Part shown: one piece after another, positions 1-64,000 of the stretch | Numbering within the stretch: position 1 is the first letter of the stretch | How the letters are laid out: every line of letters starts with the position of its first letter | Assembly: GCA_002269645.1 (NCBI GenBank) | Contig: NIVC01000963.1 | Location: forward strand, 1 to 64,000 | Source of the DNA: Macrostomum lignano | Lineage: Eukaryota | Direction: 5' to 3' | Length of the DNA: 64,000 nucleotides | Position numbers and translations under genes: made by a program | The notes under the pieces: generated by a model | Told to the model about the DNA's origin: nothing | Databases searched by the model: none | What the model saw: only the letters and a program-made list of their open reading frames with translations

Positions 1-9
1 TTAAATAAA

Positions 10-1163
10 ATGGAAAGAAAAAAATCAAAACGATTCAAGTTTCTCTCCTGTGATCGTACAGGATCCGCTTCAAAACCATGATGCCCACACCAAGATTGAC
101 AAATTTAAAACAAACAAAATCGTACGATAAACTAATTAATCTCTATGAAGAACTTAATTTTAGATTCGGAAGTTGCAGTGTAACATGGAATAGTAAAACA
201 AAGAAAAAAATACCATCAGGAATGCCAAACCAAAGCAGATAGGAATTCAACCTCACCACCATTTCGACCAGATGTAGACAACATGATTTGGATAGATACA
301 GAAACTCAAATATAACCGTAATCGATATTGATAATGCTGACCTATGCCCTGAGTTGAATGAACTGTTATGACTCATTGTGATTGGGTTGTTCAGACAAAC
401 AAGGGACACCACTTTTACTTTAACAAGGTAGATGGATTGAAAGTAACGATTCAACAAAGTGTGGGTTTTGATATTCCCGCCTTAGTATTTGCTCCACCAG
501 GTTTCTATTATGTCGATGTGTGAAATTAGGAATACAAACGTACAAAGTCCAATGTTTAATAGACATGCCAGATGTAATTCTTGATGAGATAAATAGATTA
601 ATAAAGCCACAGGATAAAAAAGAAAACCAAGAACCGATAAACAGGCACTAAAAAGCACCGTTCCACCACCCACTTGTGAAGGAGCTTCAAAGTTGTTAAG
701 TATAATACAACACAAAAACCAAGACTATGATTCTTGGTACAAGGTAGCACTTATACTCCGCGACATAGACAGTGGTGATGAAATGTACAAAGTATTCACT
801 GATTGGTCAAAAGTAAATTATGATAAGTTCGATTCCGAATCATGTAAAAAGGTGTGGAATAGCACCAGTACCAGCTCTGCTGATGCACAGGACAGACTTA
901 CTATCGGTACACTAAAGAAATGGGCAAGTGAAGAAAATAACAAATATAAGGAATGGAAAAGCAAATATGATTATTATGGTAGGATTGAGTTTCTTGATGA
1001 TAATTTCACTGACGTTAATATAACCAACTTTGTTTATGAATATAAGAAGAATAATATAATTTACAATAGCGATGGTATTTACTATTTTGATGATGATAAG
1101 TGGAGAGAACTAAGTAGTATAAATGACATATTTCTTAAAATATCACACCTTGTTCAGCAGTGA
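10..1163 (+). pseudogene. PrimPol (AEP) + PriCT-2 primase region, disrupted by stops/frameshifts
   Basis: Manual translation gives NITVIDIDN (~308-335, DxD motif) and VVQTNKGHHFYF (~385-422, AEP motif II). ORF 693-1163 has PriCT-2-like YDSWYKVALIL...FTDWSK...CKKVWNS...TIGTLKKWA. Confidence 0.75.
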
Positions 1164-2469
1164 GTTAAACCACCGAAAGACTAGACTCGAAATTGCAATT
1201 AAGAAGGCGGCTGATGATAAAGAGAAGTTAAAAGCACTTGAAAAGAAACTACAGAGTACAATAAAGAATATAAATTCAATACAAGGAGCCAACAAACTCA
1301 AACAGGTAACTACTTTGTTCAAAGAGAGGTTTACTAACAATGAAATTGAATTCGACATGAAATGGAATTTGCTAGGGTTTAACGATGGAGTATACGACCT
1401 CCTTACAGGTGAGTTTCGCGAGTATAGATATGACGATTACGTTACTAAATCGGTGGGATATAATTACTCGGATGTACTTGGAGTGAGTGATTACGACTAT
1501 GGCTTCATTGTTAATCTGCATAACCAAATTCATCCCGATCCAGAAAATAGAAAAAGTTGGGAATCCGTTATAGCCACAGCTCTAATGGGTAAGAATGTTG
1601 AAAACTTTATAATGTTTGATGGCGCTGGTGGAAATGGCAAGGGAGTTGAGGACAACCTACTTCTTAGAACTCTAGGGTCTGATTATGCAGCACCACTGAG
1701 TCCTGATGTTTTGAATTTACCAATAAGAATAGACAGGCCACAACCAGCCCTAGCACAAATTAATAAAAAGAGGTTGGTTATCAGTCAAGAAGTAAGTGGT
1801 GTCTTGAACAATGCATCAATAAAATTACTAACTGGTGGTGGGGTTATCCAAGCTAGAAATTTATATTCAAGCCAGTGTAATGTCGTTTTACACACAACTC
1901 TGATAGTCGAATGTAATAACAAGCCTGACTTTAGACAAAATATTGGAGATGCAGAAAAAAGACGAATTATAAATATTAATTACCCATGTAAATATACAGC
2001 AGATACCGACATCATTGATCATGCGAAACACATTTATAAAGCCGATTCATATCTTAAGACCGAGGAGTTTAAGAATAAATATAAGTTTGCTGAGATGAAA
2101 CACCTACTAGAAATTTTCAAGCAAACAAAGGGTGAAATATATCGATCGAAAAGCGTAATTGAAAACACTAATGAATTCATACAGAATTGTAATTGGTTTG
2201 CTCACTTCTTTGAAGAGAATTATGAATTTTTAGAAACTGAGGAAAAAACATTTTTGCTTATTAGAGAAATTTACACTGCCGCAACAGAGAGTGAATACTA
2301 TAGGACTCTAGCCCAACGTGAGAAACGTGAATTCCAACAACAATACATAACAGATTTCTTCAAGAATCACAATGACTATTGTAAGTATTATAAGGATAGA
2401 TATAGGCGTAGGATAGATGGTAAACAGCAAGAAACTAGAAATGTTCTGTTTTACTGTGTAAAAAAATAA
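1123..2469 (+). CDS. D5-like SF3 helicase (C-terminal part of primase-helicase, frameshifted from the upstream ORF)
   Basis: D5_N-like LLGFNDGVYDL, Walker A GAGGNGKG (1621-1644), Walker B VISQE, motif C VECNNKP. Confidence 0.9.
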   Translation: MTYFLKYHTLFSSELNHRKTRLEIAIKKAADDKEKLKALEKKLQSTIKNINSIQGANKLKQVTTLFKERFTNNEIEFDMKWNLLGFNDGVYDLLTGEFREYRYDDYVTKSVGYNYSDVLGVSDYDYGFIVNLHNQIHPDPENRKSWESVIATALMGKNVENFIMFDGAGGNGKGVEDNLLLRTLGSDYAAPLSPDVLNLPIRIDRPQPALAQINKKRLVISQEVSGVLNNASIKLLTGGGVIQARNLYSSQCNVVLHTTLIVECNNKPDFRQNIGDAEKRRIININYPCKYTADTDIIDHAKHIYKADSYLKTEEFKNKYKFAEMKHLLEIFKQTKGEIYRSKSVIENTNEFIQNCNWFAHFFEENYEFLETEEKTFLLIREIYTAATESEYYRTLAQREKREFQQQYITDFFKNHNDYCKYYKDRYRRRIDGKQQETRNVLFYCVKK

Positions 2470-2490
2470 ACGAAGATGTTATCAATGAGA

Positions 2491-5400
2491 TTACATTGGC
2501 TGATGAGGAATAGATCTGATAGGATCCAAATAATATCTTTTATCATCTAACGGACTCATTGTTTGTTTCATAATCTCACGAATATATATTTTATTTTTTT
2601 CAGATACAGTCATACTTACTCTACCTCTTTGAATATCTTTGTAATCTGTCAATAGTATGTTTTTAAAAGTTTCAAATTTATATTTGTACTGCTTTTATCA
2701 ACCCCTTGATCGTAACACACTCCCCTGAAACTGTAGTGAAAGCATACTCCTTTGACCGCAGGAATACAGCTTCGGAAATTATTGAGCCATTCATTTCATC
2801 TTTCAACTTTCCAATAACTTTCTTGTTCGTCTCGGAGTATAGTGGATGCTCTCTTGGATAATCCGATGTGTCTAAGTGTTCTTTAATTTTTTCAAGATCC
2901 TTATAAACATCTGAGTAATCACTGAGAATATTAGCGAATCACAATCAGAATAGTGCAATTGACAGCTGTTCCAATTCTTCTCAATAAAATTGTAATAGCA
3001 ATCGTACATTAGCATTTTTGCATAATCCAGAATAGCCATTCCTAAATAAATTGGCTTGTCACACGCAATTGTCTTTTTGTACATTTGGACACCAACTGCA
3101 TCCTCACTAAACATAATGAAATCTTTGAAATTTGGTTTGGAAAAATAACGCCTTGCAGTTTTTTCTTCAGCTACAAGATGAAAGTTCGACCTATTCTTTA
3201 CATTTTCGATTGTTTTACCGTAGAATGAATTGTTCAGTAGTTTCCACAGGTCTTTCTCAAATTTAGTTTTTGCTTCCATTCTCTGCCTGGTATTAAATTC
3301 GATGTATTTACTCAACCAGTTTGACTCTTTGAATGAAAGAATTCTATGAACTCTCATAACTCGCATGCCCATCTTCTCATAAAACTCAAGTAGTCTGTGA
3401 TGTAAAACATATTTCTCCTTGTTGTAAAATGTCAACATCAACTTGGATTGAACAAACTTTTTCTTTTCGACTTCGAGGTATTGCTTCTGTATATCAGATA
3501 AATCCTCAAACCTAGTTGTTCGTTTCTCAGGAGCCAGTGGATATTTACTTGTAGCTTTCTTACATCCTCTGTATATTCAAGGTCAACTTCAAGAAAACAA
3601 CCCCTGCCATTAGGAATATTCTTGTGATACTCTAGATCATTTTCAAACTTGAAATCTCCCACAGGTAGATTTTTCATCATTGCTTCACCATATAAATTAT
3701 TCTTGTCCAAGTATAGCATGTACGACGATTCAGAATTGCTGTCATAACTTTCTAAATACTTGTTATTCATTTTTTTATATCGATCTCCAAGAACTCCAGA
3801 GAAACCGCCGCGAATACCACTTTCTACCATGGATATCATTTCTTTATCACCAAGTAATTCCAATTCCACATTAGTATATTTCAACCCACATGCCCACGAT
3901 AATCCAGAAAGGGAAAAGCAATACGCAGGATCTATCTTGAAATATTTCAAAAATGTTGATCGAAACTTCTCAAAAGCGTTGACAAATGAGTAAATCTTTC
4001 TAATTACTGCTGTTGTATCACTGGGTGGCAAATATTTTATTTCTTCTTCAGAGAGTGTAAATGGTGGTTCCAAAAACCTAGATCCATCTAAAAACACAAC
4101 ACCACTGGTATAATTCCCCCACTTAATTGCAACATGGTCTTCCGATGTTTTAGAAATGAAATCCAATTTATAAGCTGTATTCTTTATTCGTGTTAATGGA
4201 ACTATCAAATAGTTTAGATCTTTTCCAGATTCATTCAGGAGAAACAACGGTACCGTTTGATTCGCCTTGCCCTCCTTGGTATTACATGATTGACATGCTG
4301 CGCCGCGATATTTACCATTGTAGTGATTATGCTCTCTAATTTTTTTACTATCTACAAATGGCCTTGAGCAGAGAAAACATTGTTCTGCCGCTTTGTAATC
4401 AGTCTCTTCGACATCACTTAATCTTGGATGTTTATATCTATCCATTTCATTTTTTATATGCTCAAACTTTTTTATTACGGTTTCAACGAATGATTCCACT
4501 GTAGTATTTAAAATAATATTTGATTTTATAATGTCCTCATAGTCGGAACTAGTAAAAAGTGTCCATTGTGATAGCTCTAGTGATTTATCATCCATCGTTA
4601 CATAATCTAATATTGCATAAAACACAAATGGTTTTCTTACACTCATGTGGTAGTTTTTAAACTTTAATATCCTCTTATCAATCTTTGGAACTTCAATTGA
4701 CACTTTGAAGTCATTACAGATTGCTTTATGATTATCCAGTGCATCCTGGGAGTATTTGACTTGAAGACACTTTCGACAAAGAAAAACCCTGTTGTAATTT
4801 TGGGACGTGAGGAATAAACACAAGTCTGTTATTAAGCAATAATGATTTTCAACAAGTAGTAAATCAATAACATTGGGGTTGTCGTAATCTTCTGTCAGAC
4901 GAATAGAATATATTGACTCTTTAGTATTTATATCCCTCAATCCAAACACATTTATATGAAGACTGTTCAACTTTTCAATCTCAGAGATATCTCGAATGTC
5001 CACTGGAAATTTAACGTCTCCTAAGTTTATTTCATTTATATACTGTGTATACTTACCAACTCTATATCTATGTTCCTTCACAGGATGGAGCTTTGCTAAA
5101 ATAGACCAGAGAAAGCACCTATTGTCTTTAGTGTTCTTAACATTTACTAATGCGTTTGATTTAATTGGAATTAGAATATAAGTTCCTCCTTTCAACTGAT
5201 TAATGCCAACAACTTTCAACACAATCTTTACTAACTTAACAAAATAATATCCTGATCCCCTTTCATTAAAACTATCCTTCCATCCATCGAATTCATCCAG
5301 AACATCCTGAATTGTACTTTCTATACTAGTTTCCACTTGGAGAAGATTTAACAAAGTTCGATACTTTGAATGATATTGGAACTCAATCCAACTGTCGGTA

Positions 5401-5555
5401 GTTCCTTTATAAAATTCTGCGACAAAGGAAATTCTGTATTTTATTGAATCTCTAGCCATCAAATATTCGGAAAGAATTGGGGAGATTAAACCGCGAATTT
5501 CTTCAACGGAGTCGAGATCGAATTCATAAGAGGCCGCTGGTATTTTCCTTTCCAT
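2491..5555 (-). pseudogene. polB: Protein-primed family B DNA polymerase (Polinton type) with C2H2 finger and EndoVII/HNH-like insert; frameshifted
   Basis: LYLDKNNLYGEAM (motif A), KLLNNSFYGKT (B), YSDCDS (C). Alternate frames continue SKYPLAPE (~3540), LDTSDYPREHPLY...IGKLKDE (~2800-2880) and SPLDDKRY to TAA at 2491. Insert CFLC...REHNHYNGKYRGAACQSCN. Frameshifts near 3550, 2905 and 2700. Confidence 0.9.
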
Positions 5556-5580
5556 TTTTAAGAAAAAAAATTAAACAGAC

Positions 5581-6321
5581 TCAAGCATAGGGGGGTGCAC
5601 TTGGAGCATTTGATTGAAGATTGAGTGTTGCCGAGTACTCTTTTGGCTTATCAGCTAGACCCAATTTTTCTCTCAGATCTTTCTCCAGCAGTTCCTTTTT
5701 AATTTTTTCCTTCGCTGATTGACCAAGTCTACTCTCTTTGAGGATTTTATCAACGACTTCCGAATGGTTAACTTCTTCAGGCGCAACACAGGTGTCTAAC
5801 AATTGGTCTCTTTTCTCTCTGTATTCTGAATAAATTGCAGCAGCTGCTTGAACCTCTTCAAGAGTTAATCTATAATCATCAACTGCTTTTTGGGAGTAAA
5901 TATACAATCTCTCTCTGTATTGATTTGCCAGATCTCTGAGAACAATGTATTTTGCCTTCTGCTTTTGGCAATGCATTTTCACAGTTGCAAACAACGACGT
6001 GGATTTTACAGCTTCAAAACCACTCATTGCCCCGATTACTACTCCAATAACTAAGGGATTCAATGTCAGTATCGATGTTGCTATGCCAATTCCTGTAGCA
6101 GCCAAGAGACTTACATTTCCTGTCACAATGTTGATCCAATTTATCCTGCTACTTTGTCGTTTGTACTTTTTTACCTTTTTGCTATAAATTGTAAGATCTT
6201 TCGTAATGCATTCAATACTGCCTTTGATTTCACCCTTTCTCTGATTGAAATAGTCCCACTCCCTCAAATCTGCTTCATGCAGCTCAACCACAGGATAGAT
6301 GTGTTCATTTTTTTCATTCAT
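5581..6321 (-). CDS. Polinton-associated coiled-coil/transmembrane-hairpin protein
   Basis: Intact ORF; probable start TATAAAAATG at 6321 (track start 6351). Hydrophobic hairpin WINIVTG...GAMSGFEAV, conserved-looking AVDDYRLTLEEV block, C-terminal PSAPPY. Confidence 0.7.
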   Translation of the reverse strand: MNEKNEHIYPVVELHEADLREWDYFNQRKGEIKGSIECITKDLTIYSKKVKKYKRQSSRINWINIVTGNVSLLAATGIGIATSILTLNPLVIGVVIGAMSGFEAVKSTSLFATVKMHCQKQKAKYIVLRDLANQYRERLYIYSQKAVDDYRLTLEEVQAAAAIYSEYREKRDQLLDTCVAPEEVNHSEVVDKILKESRLGQSAKEKIKKELLEKDLREKLGLADKPKEYSATLNLQSNAPSAPPYA

Positions 6322-6839
6322 TTTTATATGGCGATTATGCCTAATTGTCAATTATGTCTATACCTGACTGAATATCTAAGGCATTTCCTAGAAATATTGG
6401 TTTACTGAAGGCCATTTTATATATATATAATTTACTATCGTTGAATTGGATGACACTTTCATATTGTATATACCTGAAATTGCATTAAATTGACCCGAGG
6501 ATCCAACTTTTCTCATGGTTTTTGAGCTGGAATCGTGAAAATTGCACTTTTTCAAAATTTTTGAAAATCACAAAAAATCGCTGTTTTCAGACCATTTTCA
6601 CCTGTTTTTAGTCATTTTTCACTTATTTTTAGTGATTTTCAAAATGAGTGAGGGCATGAGGGCGAGGGCACCCCCCCTTTTTAAAAGTATAAAAATTCCG
6701 GAAATTCTGTGTTCTGTGAAATATTCCACAGGCCAATGCCCCCACATGCCCTCACCCTCAACACCCTCACTCACAGATATATGTATATTTATATATTTTT
6801 ATATTTATCACACACACACTTGAATCCATGACCACCTGG

Positions 6840-6940
6840 TAGTAGTAGTATGTTATAAGGGGCTGAGTCATCCAGCGAGCTGGCGCGTAATGCGCCCGAG
6901 CGATAAGTGTGGCGCAGCCCCTTATAACATACTACTACTA
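6840..6940. repeat. Perfect 26-bp inverted repeat (terminal hairpin)
   Basis: TAGTAGTAGTATGTTATAAGGGGCTG (6840-6865) is the exact reverse complement of 6915-6940; 49-nt GC-rich loop. Confidence 0.95.
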
Positions 6941-6941
6941 A

Positions 6942-7205
6942 TGGGGTATTGCGAATGGGGTATTGGGAATGGGGTATGGTGGATGGGATATTAGCGATGG
7001 GGGTATTGGGGATGGGGTATTGGGAATGGGTTATGGGGGGATGGGGGCATAGGGCATGGGGATTGGGTATTGGGGATTGTGATGGGGTATTGGGATGCGG
7101 TATTTTGATGGGTATGGGCGATGGGGCATGGATATTGGGTATTGGGGATTGGGTATTGGGATGGGGCATTGGCGATGGAGTATTGGGGATGGGGTAATGG
7201 CGCAT
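6942..7205. repeat. Degenerate TGGGGTATTGGGGA minisatellite
   Basis: Visible tandem repetition. Confidence 0.85.
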
Positions 7206-7775: not shown

Positions 7776-7786
7776 AGTCCACTCAC

Positions 7787-8162
7787 GCATTGGCCAGTCC
7801 GTACACGAAGAAGCAGAGGCCGATGGCCGTGAGGAACAGCAGGCACCAGATGATGTAGCCGAACCAAGCATAGTAGAAGGCCAGCCGCTCGCCAAAGTAC
7901 AGCCGGATGAGGCGCAGAGGCTGGAAGCGACAGCAGCAGTCCCACGAGCGGCTCAGCTGGTACCGCAGGTCCAGGTTGAGCCGCCAGCCGTCGCGAGAAT
8001 CGCCGCCGCCGTTGTCGGATTTCGTGTCGGCGTCCTCCACGACGCCGCCGCCGGTGCGGCAGCCGCAGCCGCCTGTCGGGCGCTTCGCCGGTCCCGACGT
8101 CTGCGCGTCGTGCATGGCGAAGGCGTCGGAAAAAACGTTCGACTCCAGCAGGTGCTCCAGCA
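7787..8162 (-). CDS. ANO: Anoctamin/TMEM16 exon including TM1
   Basis: LEHLLESNVFSDAFAMHD and FQPLRLIRLYFGERLAFYYAWFGYIIWCL match anoctamin AFPLHD and QPLD.IR.YFGEKI..YFAWLG motifs; cag/gtgagt boundaries. Confidence 0.9.
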
Positions 8163-8221
8163 CTGCCAGGGTGATTGAGAACATGCGGGAGGGGGTTGAG
8201 ACCATGGCAACAGAGGGGACT

Positions 8222-13797: not shown

Positions 13798-13911
13798 TGA
13801 GACAGACAGTCAGGCAGACAGACAGACAGACACACAGACAGACAGACAGACAGACAGGCACTAAGACAGGCAGAGAGACAGGCAGGCAGACAGGCAGACA
13901 GGCAGGCAGGC

Positions 13912-13964
<53 letters not shown>

Positions 13965-14019
13965 GGCACTAAGACAGGCAGAGAGACAGGCAGGCAGACA
14001 GGCAGACAGGCAGGCAGGC

Positions 14020-14076
<57 letters not shown>

Positions 14077-14280
14077 CTAAGACAGGCAGAGACAGGCAGG
14101 CAGACAGGCAGGCAGGCAGGCAGACACACAGACAGACAGTCACAGACAGACAAACAGACAGACAAACAGACAGGCACACAGACAGACAGACAGAGAGACA
14201 GACAGGCACACAGACAGACAGACAGACAGAGAGACAGACAAGACAGACAAGCACACAGACAGACACAGACAGACAGACAC
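13798..14280. repeat. Compound (CAGA)n/(CAGG)n microsatellite
   Basis: Direct reading. Confidence 0.95.
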
Positions 14281-42579: not shown

Positions 42580-45885
<3,306 letters not shown>

Positions 45886-53232: not shown

Positions 53233-53341
53233 ACTTAGACCATATTTTTTGGGAGGATTATAAATAATATGCTATGAGTAGACCTGTTTTGCTTTTTGCA
53301 TGTTCCTTTCTGAGAGTCTGAGAATAGCGAGAGACACAAGC

Positions 53342-53785
53342 ATGGCACTCGAACAAACTAAGGAGGAGCGAAAGTTGACGTCGCCGTCTTTGGCACAGAC
53401 CCATATGCAGGGTCCACTAGCCGTAAATGGCAGCGGCAAAGCGCTTACCAGAGCCGAGCTCGAAGAAGTCAAAAAGGATCTCGAGAAGATCAAGGCCGAG
53501 TTCGGACTGGAGGAGCCCGTCCGCAGCTTCATGGGCGAGGAGGACACCAGTTGGATCTTCGGGGGCCCACCGGATTACTCGCTCACAAACTACCTTTACT
53601 TGAAAGGGCGAACCCACGTGCACAAGCCCGGTTCCCTCGAGCAGATCGTCGAGAATCTCGTTAAGACATGGGAAATGGAGCGCTCCCACAAGGCCGACTG
53701 CAGGCAGCACCAGTCCGTGGACCAGGAGCGATTTGCCATCTCAGCCAATGGCGGCAAGGTTTTCAACAACTCCGAGGCGCACAAG
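53342..53785 (+). CDS. Pathogen-related protein (barley PRP / SnoaL-fold family), exon 1
   Basis: WIFGGPPDYSLTNYLYLKGRT...GSLEQIVENLVKTWEMERSHK matches the family; AAG|gtaagc donor. Start may be 53300. Confidence 0.85.
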
Positions 53786-53793
53786 GTAAGCCA

Positions 53794-54066
53794 GCCATAG
53801 CATCTCATGCCATAGCATCTCATGCCATAGCATCTCATGCCATAGCATCTCATGCCATAGCATCTCATGCCATAGCATCTCATGCCATAGTATCTCATGC
53901 CATAGCATCTCATGCCATAGCATCTCATGCCATAGCATCTCATGCCATAGCATCTCATGCCATAGCATCTCATGCCATAGCATCTCATGCCATAGTATCT
54001 CATGCCATAGCATCTCATGCCATAGCATCTCATGCCATAGCATCTCATGCCATAGCATCTTATGCC
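53794..54066. repeat. 15-bp minisatellite GCCATAGCATCTCAT, ~18 copies (intronic)
   Basis: Begins 8 nt after the donor. Confidence 0.95.
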
Positions 54067-54163
54067 AAAGTGCCATTGTGTGTCAGCTCAACATTTAAAT
54101 TCTCAAAGATTCTCGAATTCTCCGCTCCGCTTGCTTTATTATGTATCTCATTCTTTCAAACAG

Positions 54164-54571
54164 GTAGGAAACTATAACGTTCTTCTCAACGCGTGCCCAG
54201 CCGACCTCTGGGATTCTGAAAAGTCTACTTGGGAGGACTCGCACCACAAGTTCCGCGAAGCCTTTGCCGCCTTTCCCTGGGAGGTCCTCCAGGTCTACAG
54301 CGGCCCCCCGAAGGTGGCATTCACCTGGCGCCACTGGGGGACCTTCACGGGAACTTACGAAGAAAACAAGGGCAAGGGCGAAAAAGTAGAAATGTTCGGC
54401 TTTGGGACAGCCGTTGTCAACGACAAGCTTCAGCTCTGCGACGTTGAGATCTTCTACAATGCCGAGGAGTTCATAAGCGTCCTGCGGGGACAGAAAACTG
54501 TTGACGAGGTCAACGCTGACTGGAACAGCGGCGCCACCTGTCCCTTTGCCGCAATGGTTGCCAAGAAGTAA
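54164..54571 (+). CDS. Pathogen-related protein, exon 2
   Basis: ttctttcaaacag acceptor; GNYNVLL...SHHKFREAF..FPWEVLQVYSGPPKVAFTWRHWGTFTG. Confidence 0.88.
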   Translation, partial: VGNYNVLLNACPADLWDSEKSTWEDSHHKFREAFAAFPWEVLQVYSGPPKVAFTWRHWGTFTGTYEENKGKGEKVEMFGFGTAVVNDKLQLCDVEIFYNAEEFISVLRGQKTVDEVNADWNSGATCPFAAMVAKK

Positions 54572-55798: not shown

Positions 55799-58263
55799 TG
55801 TTCAGTCACCCACCCCTAATCTCTGTCTGTGCTGAGTCAGTAAATCAATATAAATAAATACAACACCGCGCGTGGAGAGTTTCACGTGTCCTTCCTTTTC
55901 TACTTCTAACTACAATCACTCGGCTCATAACCTCACATTGGCGACGAGAAAATGGCTACAACTGGTAGAATTCCAGAACTCTCTGCAAACTCTGACATTG
56001 AGGTATACCTAGAGAGGCTCGAACAATATTTCATCTGTAAAGAAGTCCGAGACGAGGCGAAGGTCGCCACGCTGGTGACCGCCATCGGAGAAGACGCTTA
56101 CAAGGTTCTTCGGAATCTGTGCCTGCCGGAAACGGTGACCTCCAAGTCATACTCAGACTTAGCTGCTGTCTTGAGGGCACATTACTCTCCCAAGACGTCA
56201 ATGTTATCCGCCAGATTCCGCTTTCAACAGCGCGTGCAGAAGCCCGGCGAGAGTCTCGCGGACTTTATTGCTGGCCTAAAGGCTGCCTCGGAGCATTGCA
56301 AATTTGAGTTCACTCTGGACGGGTCAGACGGATCCCACTGCATCAGCACTCTGGACGAGAGACTGCGCGACCAGTTTGTCTTCGGTCTCCGCAGTGACGT
56401 GCACCGTGCAAAGCTGCTGGAGATCGAACAGCCCGACTTCAAGACGCTCGTGGCCAGAGTCGACGCATTGGAGGCAGCGGAGAAATCGTCGTCGGAGATG
56501 GCGCACCGTGCTGAAGCAGTCGCCCACCTGCGCCTCCACAAGAAGCCCACTGCGCCCGAAGAGCTCAACAAGCAGGCTCCCCGTCAGTCACCCGGAGCTC
56601 AAGCCGACGCTATGCGGGCAGCTGCTGCCTCAGGCGCGTGTGCAAGCTGCGGCGGCGCCCACAGTCGGCAGCAGTGCAAGCTTCGTGAGGCCAAGTGCCA
56701 CAACTGCGGCAAAGTCGGGCACATCCGCAAGGTGTGCAGGTCTTCAAATCTGCACAAGCTGGACCCAGAGCCGGCTGAGCTGCAGGAGCCCCTCTTCAGC
56801 ATTAGGCAGAGCGGATCGAGCAAGGGTCTGGCGGTCGAGCTGCTGCTCCAAGGCAAGCCATGTCGCTTCGAGGTGGATACCGGCTCCGCCCTCACCGTCA
56901 TCCCGAAGAGTCTCCAAGAGGATGTTCTGCCGGGTCTCCGTCTGTCGCCGACATCCACGGTGCTGCGCACCTACACGGGCGAGAGCTTTCGACCCATCGG
57001 ACAGGCAGAGGTCGCGGTTCAGCACAACGGCCAAGACCGGTGGTTGACGCTGCTTGTGGTCGAGCAAGGCGACGTCGCAGTACTCGGTCGCGACTGGCTC
57101 ACTGAGCTGAGACTGGACTGGTCGACGATCCTCGGTCAAGTCAACGCGGTGACCGGACAAGCTGCTGAACCTTGGGCGAGGCTGCACCTGGACTTCGCCG
57201 GCCCCGTTAACGGTCGCACGTACCTGGTCATCGTGGACGCCTTCAGCAAGTGGCCGGAGGTTCATCAGGTGCACAGCGTTACGTCTGCTGCCACCATCGA
57301 GCGACTCCGCGAGGTCTTCGCCAGACTGGGCATTCCCGGGTGTTGGTCTCCGACAACGGCACGCAGTTCACCTCCGCGGAGTTCGGCGAGTTCACAAGGC
57401 GCAACGGCATTCGGCATGTTTTCTCGGCGCCGTTCCATCCGGCAACGAACGGCCAAGTGGAGAGGTTCGTTCAGGTGCTCAAGCGACATCTGCTCAAGAG
57501 CGGGCACTCGACGGCGGCACTGCAGCAGATGCTGCTGTCCTACCGCAACACGCCGCACTCGATCACCGGCGAGGCTCCCAGCCAGCTGCTCATCGGCCGC
57601 AGACTGCGCAGTCGGCTGGACCTGCTGATGCCATCGCTGACGAACAGCATGGAGCAGCGCCAAGAGCGGCAGGTCGAGCAGCAGCCGCATGCGCGCGAGT
57701 TTCAAGTCGGCGACCGAGTTCTACTGCGTGACTTCAGCCCCAACGCAAAGGCTGGCGGCGGCACCCGCTGGGCGGAGGGCAGCGTCGTGTCCGCTGGATC
57801 CCGCAACTGCGACGTTGAGGTCGGCGGCGCTCTCCATCGGCGGCACACGGACCAGCTGCTGACGAGCTCGCTGCCAGAGGCCGACCCGGTGACGCCGGCC
57901 GCTGTCTCCGATGAACCGCATTCGCCGCCTACCGAGCAAAGCAAAGTCGACGGCGGCAATGACGCGCCGCAGGATGACGCGGCCACCGCCGCCGCTGACC
58001 GGCCGAGCAGTCCGGCGAGGCGCTATCCGCAGCGTCGGAGGCAGCCACCTGAACGCCTGCAACTTTGATCCTGAATTTGAACTGACTCTAACTTCGAACG
58101 AACTTTGCTAGGGGATGTTTCGAACTTTAGGGGGGAGATGTCAGATAGTTAGTTATGTGTATGGCTTGGCTAGGTCTCTCAGTTAGTTATTATTATTTGT
58201 TTATTTTTTAGATCTAGTGCACTTTTGCCACCCCAGTGTCGGTGGGGTTTGGAGTTGGTTATT

Positions 58264-60330: not shown

Positions 60331-63141
60331 TCCTGCTATCTCTTGGCTCAACCATAGACAAAATAAACCCACAGGAATGAGGAGATTGCTGTGGGAAGAG
60401 GGGTAAGGAGATTACAACTGAAAGCTAGTTTTCCATACAATAAAACAAAAAATGGGCTTTTTCAATTTCTAAAAACAAATTTTAATCCTGCACCCATGCC
60501 GCGTTGTCTATAGAAAAAATCAATCATGCTCGCAGAATCAAATAAGACTGCACTGAATCAAAGGTCTTTTGGCCATAGACTTTCACAGGGCCGTTCGCTT
60601 TTAACCTCGTTTCAGCATGCATAGGCTGACTGAAAGACACACTGTGCTGAATAAATGGTCTTCTCGATCAACTTTGTATTCTAAGAATCTCTTCTACTTT
60701 TGCATTCTAAGAATCTCTTCTACTTTCCCATAGATATTCACAGGGCCATTTGCTTAGGTGGTGGTGGCCGCAACCGAACCATACTAGCCATAGGAGCGAC
60801 ACTCTTAGCCTTTTGAGCACTATCCAGTTGACTCCTTCTTGACTGCTGCTCCTTTACCGCTAAGTGATCCTAGCTAGTAGCATGCGGTGCAAAGAAGCTA
60901 GCATGTTTGCAAGTAAGAGGTTTGTTGAATGTGAGGATTCATCTGTATTTAGGCCCACATGTGAATCATATGAATCCAACATTGATTCGCCAGATTTCAC
61001 TTCTCCTAGAGCTGGTGTGGCCCTAAATCATCAGCTGCACCAAGAGCCTCCTCCCCAGCCTCAGTTGACATAATGCTCAAGACAGAGAGTGATGCAGAGA
61101 AAAATGAAGAAAGCAGATAGTAAAGCACACACAAATACAAAAAAAGAAATGTCTGGCAGAGAAATTAAGAAAACCCAGAAGAACCTAAATCCTAATTCTA
61201 GAATGAGCATACAACCCACGAGCGAAGCTAATCTGCCAGATGGTCCCTATAGTAGCAGGCAAAAAGGGGCTAACCTGGGAATAGATTTGATTGATCTTAG
61301 TGCCAAGTTGTTGACCCAGGTGCCAAGCTGCAGCTGTGGGCCTAGTGTAGACCTGGATGCCAAACTGTAGGACAGATGCAGTTGCAGACTCAGTTGAAGA
61401 AGACAAATTAAACAGATGAATGGCGGTGATAGCCAAACCAATATTGTAGAATATGGAGAAGATGTAGCTCTTGAAGTACAGAATCCAGATGCAGTATTAA
61501 ACTTAAATCAATGTCTCTGTGGGACCTCCATTAATGTAGCAGAGCACTTGGTGCATTTCAAATAGTAAAAGAAAATGTCTGTAACTAATTTATTTAACCG
61601 TGAAATTTATTATTAATTATTCTAGGTTAGGCCTATTCATTTGATTGTATAGCTTATATCAATTGGAGCACTTGACAAATAATAATATAGCTTATATTGA
61701 AGTTACTTGGCACAATCTTGGGGGCAGTTGAGTTGCTAAGTCTGATCTAATGTTTAATTCGGTTTGGGTTGGCTCTATAGCATAATAGGGGAAATAGTCT
61801 TGTCTGGTATCACTGGAACACGGTAACGATCGGCATGCCAAGCGCAAGGAGGGAGAGGAAGAGCCTACACCAAAAACACGAAACACCGCACTCAAAACCG
61901 TGCCAAAACTGACCCCCTATAGCCTCAAATCCTAACTGCAAAAAGTGGTAACCAAAATAATAGAACAGTAGATAAAATAATAGACAGAATTTTCCTAGAA
62001 CTAAACATAAAAGGGCTTCTCCTAAACCCATTATTACAAAAAATCAATTTAAGTACACTAAAAATGGATAGAAACAAAAAAATATTATAGTAATCTGCCC
62101 AGCTATTGCCATAATGTCTGGTTGACGAATGCCGGTTGACGAAATGTCCGGTCACCGAAATGCTGCACAGACTTCATTATACTCATCGAAAAGCAATTTA
62201 GACTGATACTGTTGTTAAAATGATTATTCACACTAAAGAATAACTCTAGTAGAAAGCAATTTACTGAAGCAGTATTGACTAATATTTCTCACTCAACGAT
62301 TTGTTATAATTTACAGTTTTAAATAGTAGAAAAAGGTTTAGACTGACTATCTAGTCGGTTAAAATATTAGAACAGGGTTTTTATAACACTAATCGATTTT
62401 AGGAAGAATATTTTGTAATTTGTTTTGTTTTACTGATCATGAGGACGTTACGTTAAAATGGCGCTTAAAATAATTTTAAGTCATTTAACGATATTTTAAG
62501 CCATAAGCTACTCGAATGCACCCTTTATATTCTTAGCAAAAATGTCAGTGCTACGCGTGAAAAATTCAAATTTTCAAATACTTTTTCTACGGCTTGTAAT
62601 TTTATGCAGAAAAACAAATTTATAAACTTATTGGCTATCAGAACTTTGACTGGCACTGAAAGCTTCTAACAATAACCCAATTTTGATATTTATTTTTTTA
62701 CAGAAGTTTAGGTAAAAATCAACTTTTTCTTAAAAACGATAACAAGTTTATTGGCTTTTGAAAAAAATTGAACCTTAATAACCTTGGCTTGAGAATACGA
62801 ATTCATCACGAGCGAAATCGAATTTAAAGCAATTGTCTGAAAAATTACAAGAAATTTAAAGACGGCATATTCAAAGGTAAGCTGCATCAACCCACACTGA
62901 GCAAATTTCTGCATTCGTGAATCAGGTTTGATTTTAGGATTCATAAAAAGGTTTATAAAGTTTTTGAAAAGATACTACAATCTTATTTGTTGATGTACAT
63001 GTAGATCAAAATGTCATCAGGATTCCAGTATTACGTACGAGCCTCTATTTCACCTCACCTCTGAATGCTCACTCGCCGATGCGCGCTCAACTAACTTGTT
63101 TTACTTTGAAGTTTTGAGTTTTTACCCCCTTTGCGATGCAG

Positions 63142-64000
63142 GAGCAACCAGCCAGGACGGCCGGTGCTCACCGGAGCTCTGCTGGATGTGTCCGGCTCCA
63201 TGGAGCGGACGTTCGACAGCCGGCAGGTGGTGGGGGCAGCCAAGCAAAAGTGGGTCAGATCCATATTTCGAGTCGGTGATCAGCTGGTGAAAAAAGATGT
63301 ATCTGAAGCTAACCGGGTGTTTATGCTTGGCGTGGGGGCTCACAATGAGCCACAGGTGTTCGATGTTCTGGCGTCCATTGAGAAGGCTCGTGAGCGGGAG
63401 GAGAGGATTCGTCAAATTCAAGAGAGGTTTACATTGGATCAAATATTTGATGAAGCACTTGATATACTTCAAAGCAGTGGCGCTCCACGAGTTCGAAACT
63501 GGGCCAGGAGGAGTGTGCTGCGCTCCGTTGTCGACATTCAGACAGCCAGTATCATCCTCGACGCCCTTCGAACTGACGATGATTTTAAAGAAACATTAGC
63601 GAAACAAATTCTGCCTGATCAGTGCAGAGAATTCAAAGCCTCAAAAATTGTTTCTGAGGGATTTAATGTTTTTGGAAGAATTGCCTCTTACACGCCATTA
63701 GCACTGATTTCAAACACCGTAATGGACGGGGCAACGGAGGACAGCATGAAAAAAGTTGTTGCAGACTGTGAGAATTATTTGAAGCAGAAACGCTCGCTAG
63801 AGTCCGTTTCGGTGCGATCAGTTGTTTCTGTGACAGAAGCAGAGCAAATTCTGAACTCTGGCGGTAACAGACAAGAAAATCTGACTGATAAAAAAATCGA
63901 CGAACTTATTAAAGCCATTGAGCCCTGCATCTACGGAGCAACTCCTTTGTTAGCTTCTCTCATGCAGTCCATAATACTGTTTAGCCACGCATCCTACAAG
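63142..64000 (+). CDS. vWA-domain protein (open at the window end; absent from the ORF track)
   Basis: Manual translation is stop-free for ~286 codons: LLDVSGSM (MIDAS DxSxS, D at 63185) and IEPCIYGATPLLASL (vWA G.TPL motif); possible acceptor tgcag at 63141. Confidence 0.8.

Follow-up and report, generated by a model that had tools for sequence, protein, structure and literature searches.

The stretch of DNA analysed here, 64 kb in length and called the window below, carries a hairpin that is genuine and not random. It lies at what is probably the right end of a decayed group 2 Polinton, and it is not an ITR of the parvovirus type with a Y/T shape. With moderate confidence, we interpret it as the right end of an AGT-type (group 2 / Alpha) Polinton that was replicated by protein priming and whose terminal 25 bp were copied in inverted orientation 49 nt further inside. 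Within this interpretation, a hairpin that is a constant feature of the family is a tentative suggestion, while a one-off product of this particular copy seems to us less probable again. Papers and preprints are cited below for the passages concerned.

Three viral-type genes occupy positions 1-6321, namely a primase-helicase, a protein-primed polymerase (pPolB) and a SLATT-like ORF (Table 1), and the window begins inside the element. The primase-helicase matches the Pfam profiles PriCT-2 and D5_N, with the NCBIfam P4-family primase below cut-off, and AEP-like motifs may be present at 321 and 395. Among its 74 matches, the best one to bear the name of an organism is the D5 protein of Bodo saltans virus (37%). 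The two replicases, the AEP/D5 primase-helicase on the plus strand and the TP-pPolB on the minus strand, converge tail to tail. The SLATT-like ORF has four homologues at 64-68%, with a well conserved helical core. Its C-terminus reads P-S-A-P-P-Y, which we take to be overlapping PSAP- and PPxY-type late-domain-like motifs; PSAP is kept in two of the four homologues. A search of the ESM Atlas with this ORF returned unnamed clusters only, and SLATT genes are drawn on the maps of Alpha adintoviruses (PMC8502044). Genes for a retroviral-like integrase, ATPase, protease or capsid were not found among the scanned ORFs of 1-6321, the window starting inside the element.

Table 1. Features of the element, its right end and the adjoining host DNA (positions in the window; strand given as +, - or. 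for none).
Feature	Position	Strand	Remarks
Broken AEP/PriCT-2/D5-type SF3 primase-helicase	321..2469	+	several frames; PriCT-2 in ORF 618-1163, helicase in ORF 1123-2469
Broken pPolB of HNH-insertion type	2503..5555	-	D1 TP-like 1-122, vOTU 131-247, EndoVII/HNH 394-439, exonuclease
SLATT-like hydrophobic ORF, 246 aa	5581..6321	-	viral gene nearest to the end region; NF033634 below cut-off (E 2e-4)
Subterminal hairpin H1	6559..6644	.	20-bp arms, 19/20 complementary, 21-nt repeats inside; z -4.1
Subterminal hairpin H2	6645..6773	.	abuts H1; arms of inverted GAGGG-type subrepeats; z -4.9 and -6.1
Inner arm	6841..6865	+	inverted copy of the terminal 25 bp; begins (AGT)3
Spacer, 49 nt	6866..6914	.	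holds an imperfect stem extension, 6867-6870 with 6910-6913
Two mini-palindromes	6872..6896 (6872-6883, 6882-6896)	.	share 2 nt; without a stable Y/T fold
Outer arm	6915..6939	-	ends (ACT)3; probable right terminus of the Polinton, inferred at 6939
G-rich 14-nt minisatellite, host-type	6940..7200	+	starts 6940/6941, adjoins the terminus
Host ORF containing an anoctamin exon	7783..8205	-	PF04547 E 3e-6, just below cut-off

The pPolB gene is damaged by an internal deletion near 4071-3986, a change of frame near 3552-3558 and six stops in the C-terminal frame. The best of its 670 matches is a Macrostomum lignano protein, 96-97% identical, so that the host is presumably a Macrostomum flatworm with at least one sister copy of the element. 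An AlphaFold model was built from 33 aligned sequences; its pLDDT averages 68 and mostly exceeds 75 in the N-terminal half. Foldseek gave no match of the model in the PDB at E <= 0.001, and domains were assigned from a second structural alignment, by a tool whose background lies at Z ~8. Residues 1-122 of the model resemble the Y-family LF/PAD fold (Z 8.8 over a background of ~8, rmsd 3.2, 105 aligned) and residues 131-247 a viral OTU (Z 8.2 over the same background, rmsd 3.3, 104 aligned), while residues 306-543 resemble phi29 polymerase (Z 11.3, rmsd 4.1, 154 aligned). The best viral fold matches are bidnavirus-like and adintovirus PolBs. The EndoVII/HNH domain is recognized by PF02945 (E 2e-7), and its H409 and N425 are present in all 33 aligned proteins. 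HNH insertions mark pPolB2 (PMC10748475), and Alpha PolB has been equated with group 2 Polintons (PMC8502044).

In the TP-vOTU-Exo architecture described in PMC11161782, the linking Ser or Tyr lies between helix 2 and strand 4, beside a Gly. In our model, S101 (G100-S101-G102) sits between helix 74-98 and strand 103-117. It is kept in 32 of the 33 aligned proteins and marks the predicted position of the priming, or linking, serine; the predicted vOTU pair of C147 and H238 is found in 33 of 33. To judge from sequence and model, the element appears to have kept the machinery for protein priming, and retention of the TP domain, of S101 and of the vOTU Cys/His favours protein priming over hairpin priming. 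The original prediction of a pPolB-encoding Polinton-like element is borne out by this TP-vOTU-HNH-exonuclease pPolB, broken gene as it is, together with the AGT end motif.

The hairpin lies 520 bp from the start codon of the last viral ORF, and its two ends are the only (AGT)3/(ACT)3 runs in the 64-kb window. In vertebrate Polintons, the commonest type of end carries the motif 5'-(AGT)2//(ACT)2-3' with a 6-bp TSD (PMC8097293). Because the runs at the hairpin ends match the Polinton motif and lie 520 bp past the last viral ORF, we place the right terminus, from the sequence, probably at 6939. The pair T6840:A6940, which makes 26 bp of 25, is then probably incidental, with A6940 as the first host base. 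Rightward of the element, GC rises from 0.35 to 0.57. The repeat had been said to sit at a virus/host boundary, and it does so, abutting a host minisatellite on one side and standing 520 bp from the last viral gene on the other. The DNA at 6350-6839 likely belongs to the element, having the same GC (0.35); a Markov classifier run on this interval reached no placement. The element appears to lie downstream of an anoctamin exon, within an intron. It had also been remarked that no 6-bp TSD surrounds the hairpin, and indeed the flanking 6-mers, CCTGGT and AATGGG, differ, with no 5-bp TSD either. Such a local lack of a 6-bp TSD says little, because the partner of a right-end TSD is expected at the left end, outside the window.

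The interval 7470-60700 is host DNA dense in minisatellites (81 TRF rows in the window), which account for numerous spurious ORFs; a 4-nt satellite is present in two inverted stretches, 13800-14121 and 45326-45647. A two-exon host gene at 53282-54571 (+), with a weak SnoaL-like match (E 0.009), is split by a 15-nt minisatellite. An LTR retrotransposon has left a remnant at 55931-58068 (+); the two ORFs scanned there show gag, zinc knuckle, protease and integrase matches, and neither matches RT. The open-ended ORF of 297 aa at 63110-64000 (+) has no Pfam match; a D-x-S-x-S near its start may indicate a vWA domain.

The inverted repeat with its AGT-repeat ends and 49-nt loop was reproduced at exactly the positions first given for it: 6840-6865 and 6915-6940 pair perfectly over 26 bp. 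When imperfect pairs are counted, it lengthens to 31 bp (94%) and the spacer shrinks to 39 nt. It tops all perfect inverted repeats spaced by up to 600 nt in the 64-kb window, the runner-up being 14 bp long, and the number expected by chance is ~2e-8 per 64 kb. In silico folding, which had been proposed as a check, yields a terminal fold-back with z -8.8, equalled in stability by none of 200 shuffles. The perfection of the arms is uninformative about selection, because the sister copy differs by only ~3-4% at the protein level. In the fold-back, the 3'-terminal base is paired, opposite a 5' template overhang. The inner copy ends within one base of the terminus, as is expected from run-off at a linear end. 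The spacer is asymmetric, with 24 of its 49 positions the same as in its own reverse complement, and flip/flop would therefore be detectable. At 6838-6840, the AGT periodicity runs two bases (GT) past the inner arm, and these may have offered microhomology for the switch by which a copy-back event returns.

A Y/T-shaped fold had been predicted from two small palindromes, described as adjacent, within the loop. These overlap at 6882-6883, which prevents the complete formation of both at once. The rod, at -35.2 kcal/mol, is 5.4-6.1 kcal/mol more stable than the best Y forms (-29.1 and -29.8 kcal/mol), and sampled structures with two hairpins (each of at least four stacked pairs) numbered 0 of 2000 on the plus strand and 10 of 2000 on the minus strand. 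Shuffling the spacer 5000 times produced two such mini-palindromes in 11.9% of cases (7.2% if one has at least 5 bp). When the arms are kept constant, the actual spacer is ordinary among 1000 dinucleotide shuffles (z -1.1 and +0.05), that is, no better folded than they are. Palindrome overlap, energy, structure sampling and spacer shuffles alike lead us to reject a parvovirus-like Y/T fold.

Directly inside the terminal hairpin lie two more, H1 and H2, which were absent from the original prediction. Their fold z of -4 to -6 contrasts with z >= -1.1 in all 25 windows of the element body. The inverted GAGGG subrepeats of H2 may resemble the iteron-type origins of D5/P4-like primase-helicases.

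Searches for other copies covered several collections. The 64-kb window holds no further copy of the hairpin at up to three mismatches, nor one detectable by self-BLAST. A 19-mer scan of prokaryotic genome contigs gave three bacterial loci against 4.3 expected by chance, with the inverted copy in none of the three; these chance matches (L001-L003, 3001-3019) fall at the same position in apparently one conserved Bacteroidota gene, which is unrelated. The phage collection contained no match to the pPolB or to the end region. In the plasmid collection there was one record, 83% over ~55 nt inside a reductase gene (E 3e-3), which we treated as chance, and the four Rfam matches are all far below gathering scores. 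Searching by phmmer with the 50-aa translation of the hairpin, a weak test for mis-called sister ORFs, returned three matches of 1516-1932 aa, none of them copy-like (the best stretches in two of them, 20 and 27 residues long, are 45% and 36% identical, the third being without a reported stretch).

In the model we favour, replication would be begun by protein priming on the (AGT)n end; AGT repeats at Polinton ends have a role in slide-back protein priming. The nascent strand would fold back at the imperfect pairs 6867-6870/6910-6913, which make up a short quasi-palindrome, copy its 5' end right through to the terminal base and then rejoin the template, which would leave the inner arm. When a single strand is displaced or excised, its 3' end could use the duplicate to form a local duplex of 25 bp, like the panhandle origin known from protein-primed replicons but acting at short range. 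Parallels are offered by the copy-back products of phi29 and of yeast linear plasmids, and by the adenovirus panhandle. Template switching was among the origins first suggested, and it is plausible. To our knowledge, neither the initiation of Polinton replication nor the shedding of TP before integration has been shown experimentally. TP removal before Polinton integration is called unclear in PMC11161782. Several points weigh against the copy-back reading. We have a single copy, with one end of the element in the window and no integrase, ATPase or capsid genes there, and 6350-6839 is no more than likely element DNA. Direct repeats (TA, and an imperfect one of 4 bp) flank the unit, which would also suit an independent MITE. 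Moreover, a retained TP domain is no proof of its use at the 6939 end, because the element carries a second replicase, and in the model the Z scores of the TP and vOTU domains are barely above the tool background of ~8.

Replication might instead be primed by the folded 3' end or proceed by hairpin transfer, with either the D5 primase-helicase or a polymerase of the host assisting. The hairpin would then be opened by nicking at 6840/6841, for which the EndoVII/HNH domain of pPolB is a possible agent, and this would regenerate the AGT end and invert the spacer. The geometry of the fold-back is suitable, its 3'-terminal base being paired with an overhang of 5' template, and the element possesses both a D5-type primase-helicase and an EndoVII-family domain (PF02945). 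In a preprint on Halocafeteria (bioRxiv 10.64898/2026.07.28.741278), terminal palindromes are found preferentially with non-pPolB replicases and hairpin priming is proposed, with accidental annealing as the alternative. Those palindromes are tight, however (the gap limit in that search was 10 nt), whereas the spacer here is 49 nt. AGT repeats are, furthermore, the standard end motif of ordinary Polintons (PMC8097293). Y/T arms are lacking, and a Pfam scan of nine ORFs, eight of them viral, detected no HUH Rep/NS1 domain in the visible part of the element; a resolvase role of the HNH domain is a suggestion of ours alone. The hairpin-primed variant was part of the original prediction. The paired 3' end and the D5 primase-helicase still speak for it, but with the TP domain, the GSG serine (Ser101) and the vOTU Cys/His all kept we consider it distinctly unlikely. 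Very unlikely, in our opinion, is an animal Polinton family with constant fold-back ends that would use both TP priming and snap-back hairpin transfer, open the hairpin with the EndoVII/HNH domain of pPolB2 and show flip/flop of its spacers. If true, such hybrid priming would bridge protein-primed and rolling-hairpin replication, a transition that has been proposed among parvoviruses, Polintons and bidnaviruses, and would give a hairpin-opening role to the EndoVII/HNH insertion of pPolB2, which is otherwise without an explained function.

Other explanations detach the unit from the replication of this element. Both of its ends are outward-facing, (AGT)3 and (ACT)3, like those of a whole Polinton, and this part of the original proposal of a ~100-bp mini-Polinton stood up. 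The unit could then be a non-autonomous mini-Polinton of 99 bp, or the left end of a nested second Polinton joined to this right end by deletion; tandem and nested integration of such elements is on record (bioRxiv 10.64898/2026.07.28.741278 and bioRxiv 10.64898/2026.10.13.758929). The mini-Polinton nevertheless fails on the TSD, neither 6 bp nor 5 bp being duplicated (CCTGGT vs AATGGG), and the lack of a second copy in the 64-kb window at up to three mismatches speaks against it; the nested version requires more events than copy-back. Either form is unlikely. Quite unlikely, too, is an unrelated MITE. It would comprise 6842-6938 with duplicated TA (Tc1/mariner type), or else 6840-6940 with TAG..CTA ends and 4 bp imperfectly duplicated (Academ-like, these being Academ end features). 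A 26-bp TIR around a short interior is typical MITE anatomy, and the diagnostic TSDs of MITEs are TA, or 3-4 bp. A trivial TA direct repeat does flank 6842-6938, an imperfect one (CTGG/ATGG, 3/4) flanks 6840-6940, and the window is very repeat-rich. Yet TA is palindromic and part of the AGT periodicity, so it is implied by the repeat itself, and a 3/4 match has a random probability of ~5%, not yet corrected for the 72 boundary pairs that were tested. On the MITE reading, it would be coincidence that the unit carries the Polinton end motif and that it lies at the element/host junction. The single copy seen might also prompt the thought of an assembly or sequencing artefact, a fold-back chimera of a read. 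Read fold-backs usually yield long palindromes, whereas this duplication measures just 25 bp, comes to a halt at a biological motif and gives way to unique sequence, and the window has no other perfect inverted repeat above 14 bp within 600 nt; we regard an artefact as highly improbable.

If the fold-back is constant at the end of an animal Polinton with TP-pPolB and D5 primase-helicase, it would extend the palindromes of protist virophages and PLVs (Polinton-like viruses) to animals. In that case, flip/flop of the asymmetric 49-nt spacer among copies would be a simple sequence discriminator between protein priming and hairpin transfer. A hairpin that turned out to be a one-off copy-back product or a MITE would be a minor curiosity. 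Our literature search, conducted over titles and the openings of abstracts, met no fold-back end in an animal Polinton and no description of a Macrostomum Polinton. The passages cited from PMC11296320, PMC6431247, PMC4455052, PMC4298943 and PMC3014272 held nothing decisive on the hairpin end. As for supplements, that of PMC10748475 has no Polinton end sequences, that of PMC8097293 gives 6-bp motifs and TSDs only, and a motif search in the accessible part of that of PMC8502044 found nothing.

With group 2 / Alpha Polintons (PMC10748475, PMC8502044, PMC11161782) the element shares a TP-vOTU-HNH-Exo pPolB, AGT ends and a SLATT-like accessory ORF. It differs in that the terminal 25 bp recur in inverted orientation 49 nt inside, which is undescribed in the passages cited, and in that integrase and virion genes are not visible within the window. 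The endogenous virophages and PLVs of Halocafeteria seosinensis (bioRxiv 10.64898/2026.07.28.741278) likewise have a fold-back at their very end, adjacent to host DNA, and a D5 primase-helicase, sometimes together with a pPolB; in four virophage subtypes and one PLV subtype, every complete member has palindromes within TIRs beside TSDs. There the host is a protist, the palindromes are tight (52 nt in one subtype) and all complete copies carry them, whereas here an animal host, an AGT end, a kept TP-pPolB, 25-bp arms and a 49-nt spacer are seen in one copy. Measured by their definition of a tight palindrome (arms of at least 20 bp, gap of at most 10 nt), our hairpin falls outside, its spacer being 49 nt, or 39 nt with imperfect pairs; as to the replicase association, a D5 primase-helicase is present, but alongside TP-pPolB. 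The idea of hairpin priming for such ends is therefore not new, having been raised in that preprint. A second preprint (bioRxiv 10.64898/2026.10.13.758929) reports dual replicases, tandem integration and mobile AEP-SF3 genes of the BsV type.

The ITRs of parvoviruses and AAV, which replicate by rolling hairpin, also present a base-paired 3' end on a fold-back. In contrast to them, our end has no stable Y/T arms, and the element shows no HUH Rep among its nine scanned ORFs and carries dsDNA Polinton genes. Bidnaviruses, which encode a pPolB, are described in PMC4061559 as being without parvoviral hairpins in their ITRs. Casposons (PMC4046053) are again self-synthesizing elements with palindromes inside their TIRs and a panhandle model of the origin. 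They differ in being prokaryotic and using a Cas1 integrase, and the passage cited is silent on palindromes that include the terminal bases. The typical telomeres of Streptomyces (PMC4513846) provide another comparison: a TP-capped linear end, the first bases of which pair with an internal palindrome, and packed hairpins. On this analogy, the terminal hairpin together with H1 and H2 may be compared, as a palindrome-rich end, with such telomeres. Theirs are bacterial, served by the unrelated Tap/Tpg, with real rabbit-ear arms and a pairing of 13 nt as against 25 here, and the likeness is an analogy of working, not of kinship. In Streptomyces, protein does the priming, and yet the fold-back is extendable in vitro (PMC4513846); TP priming and a fold-back end can therefore coexist.
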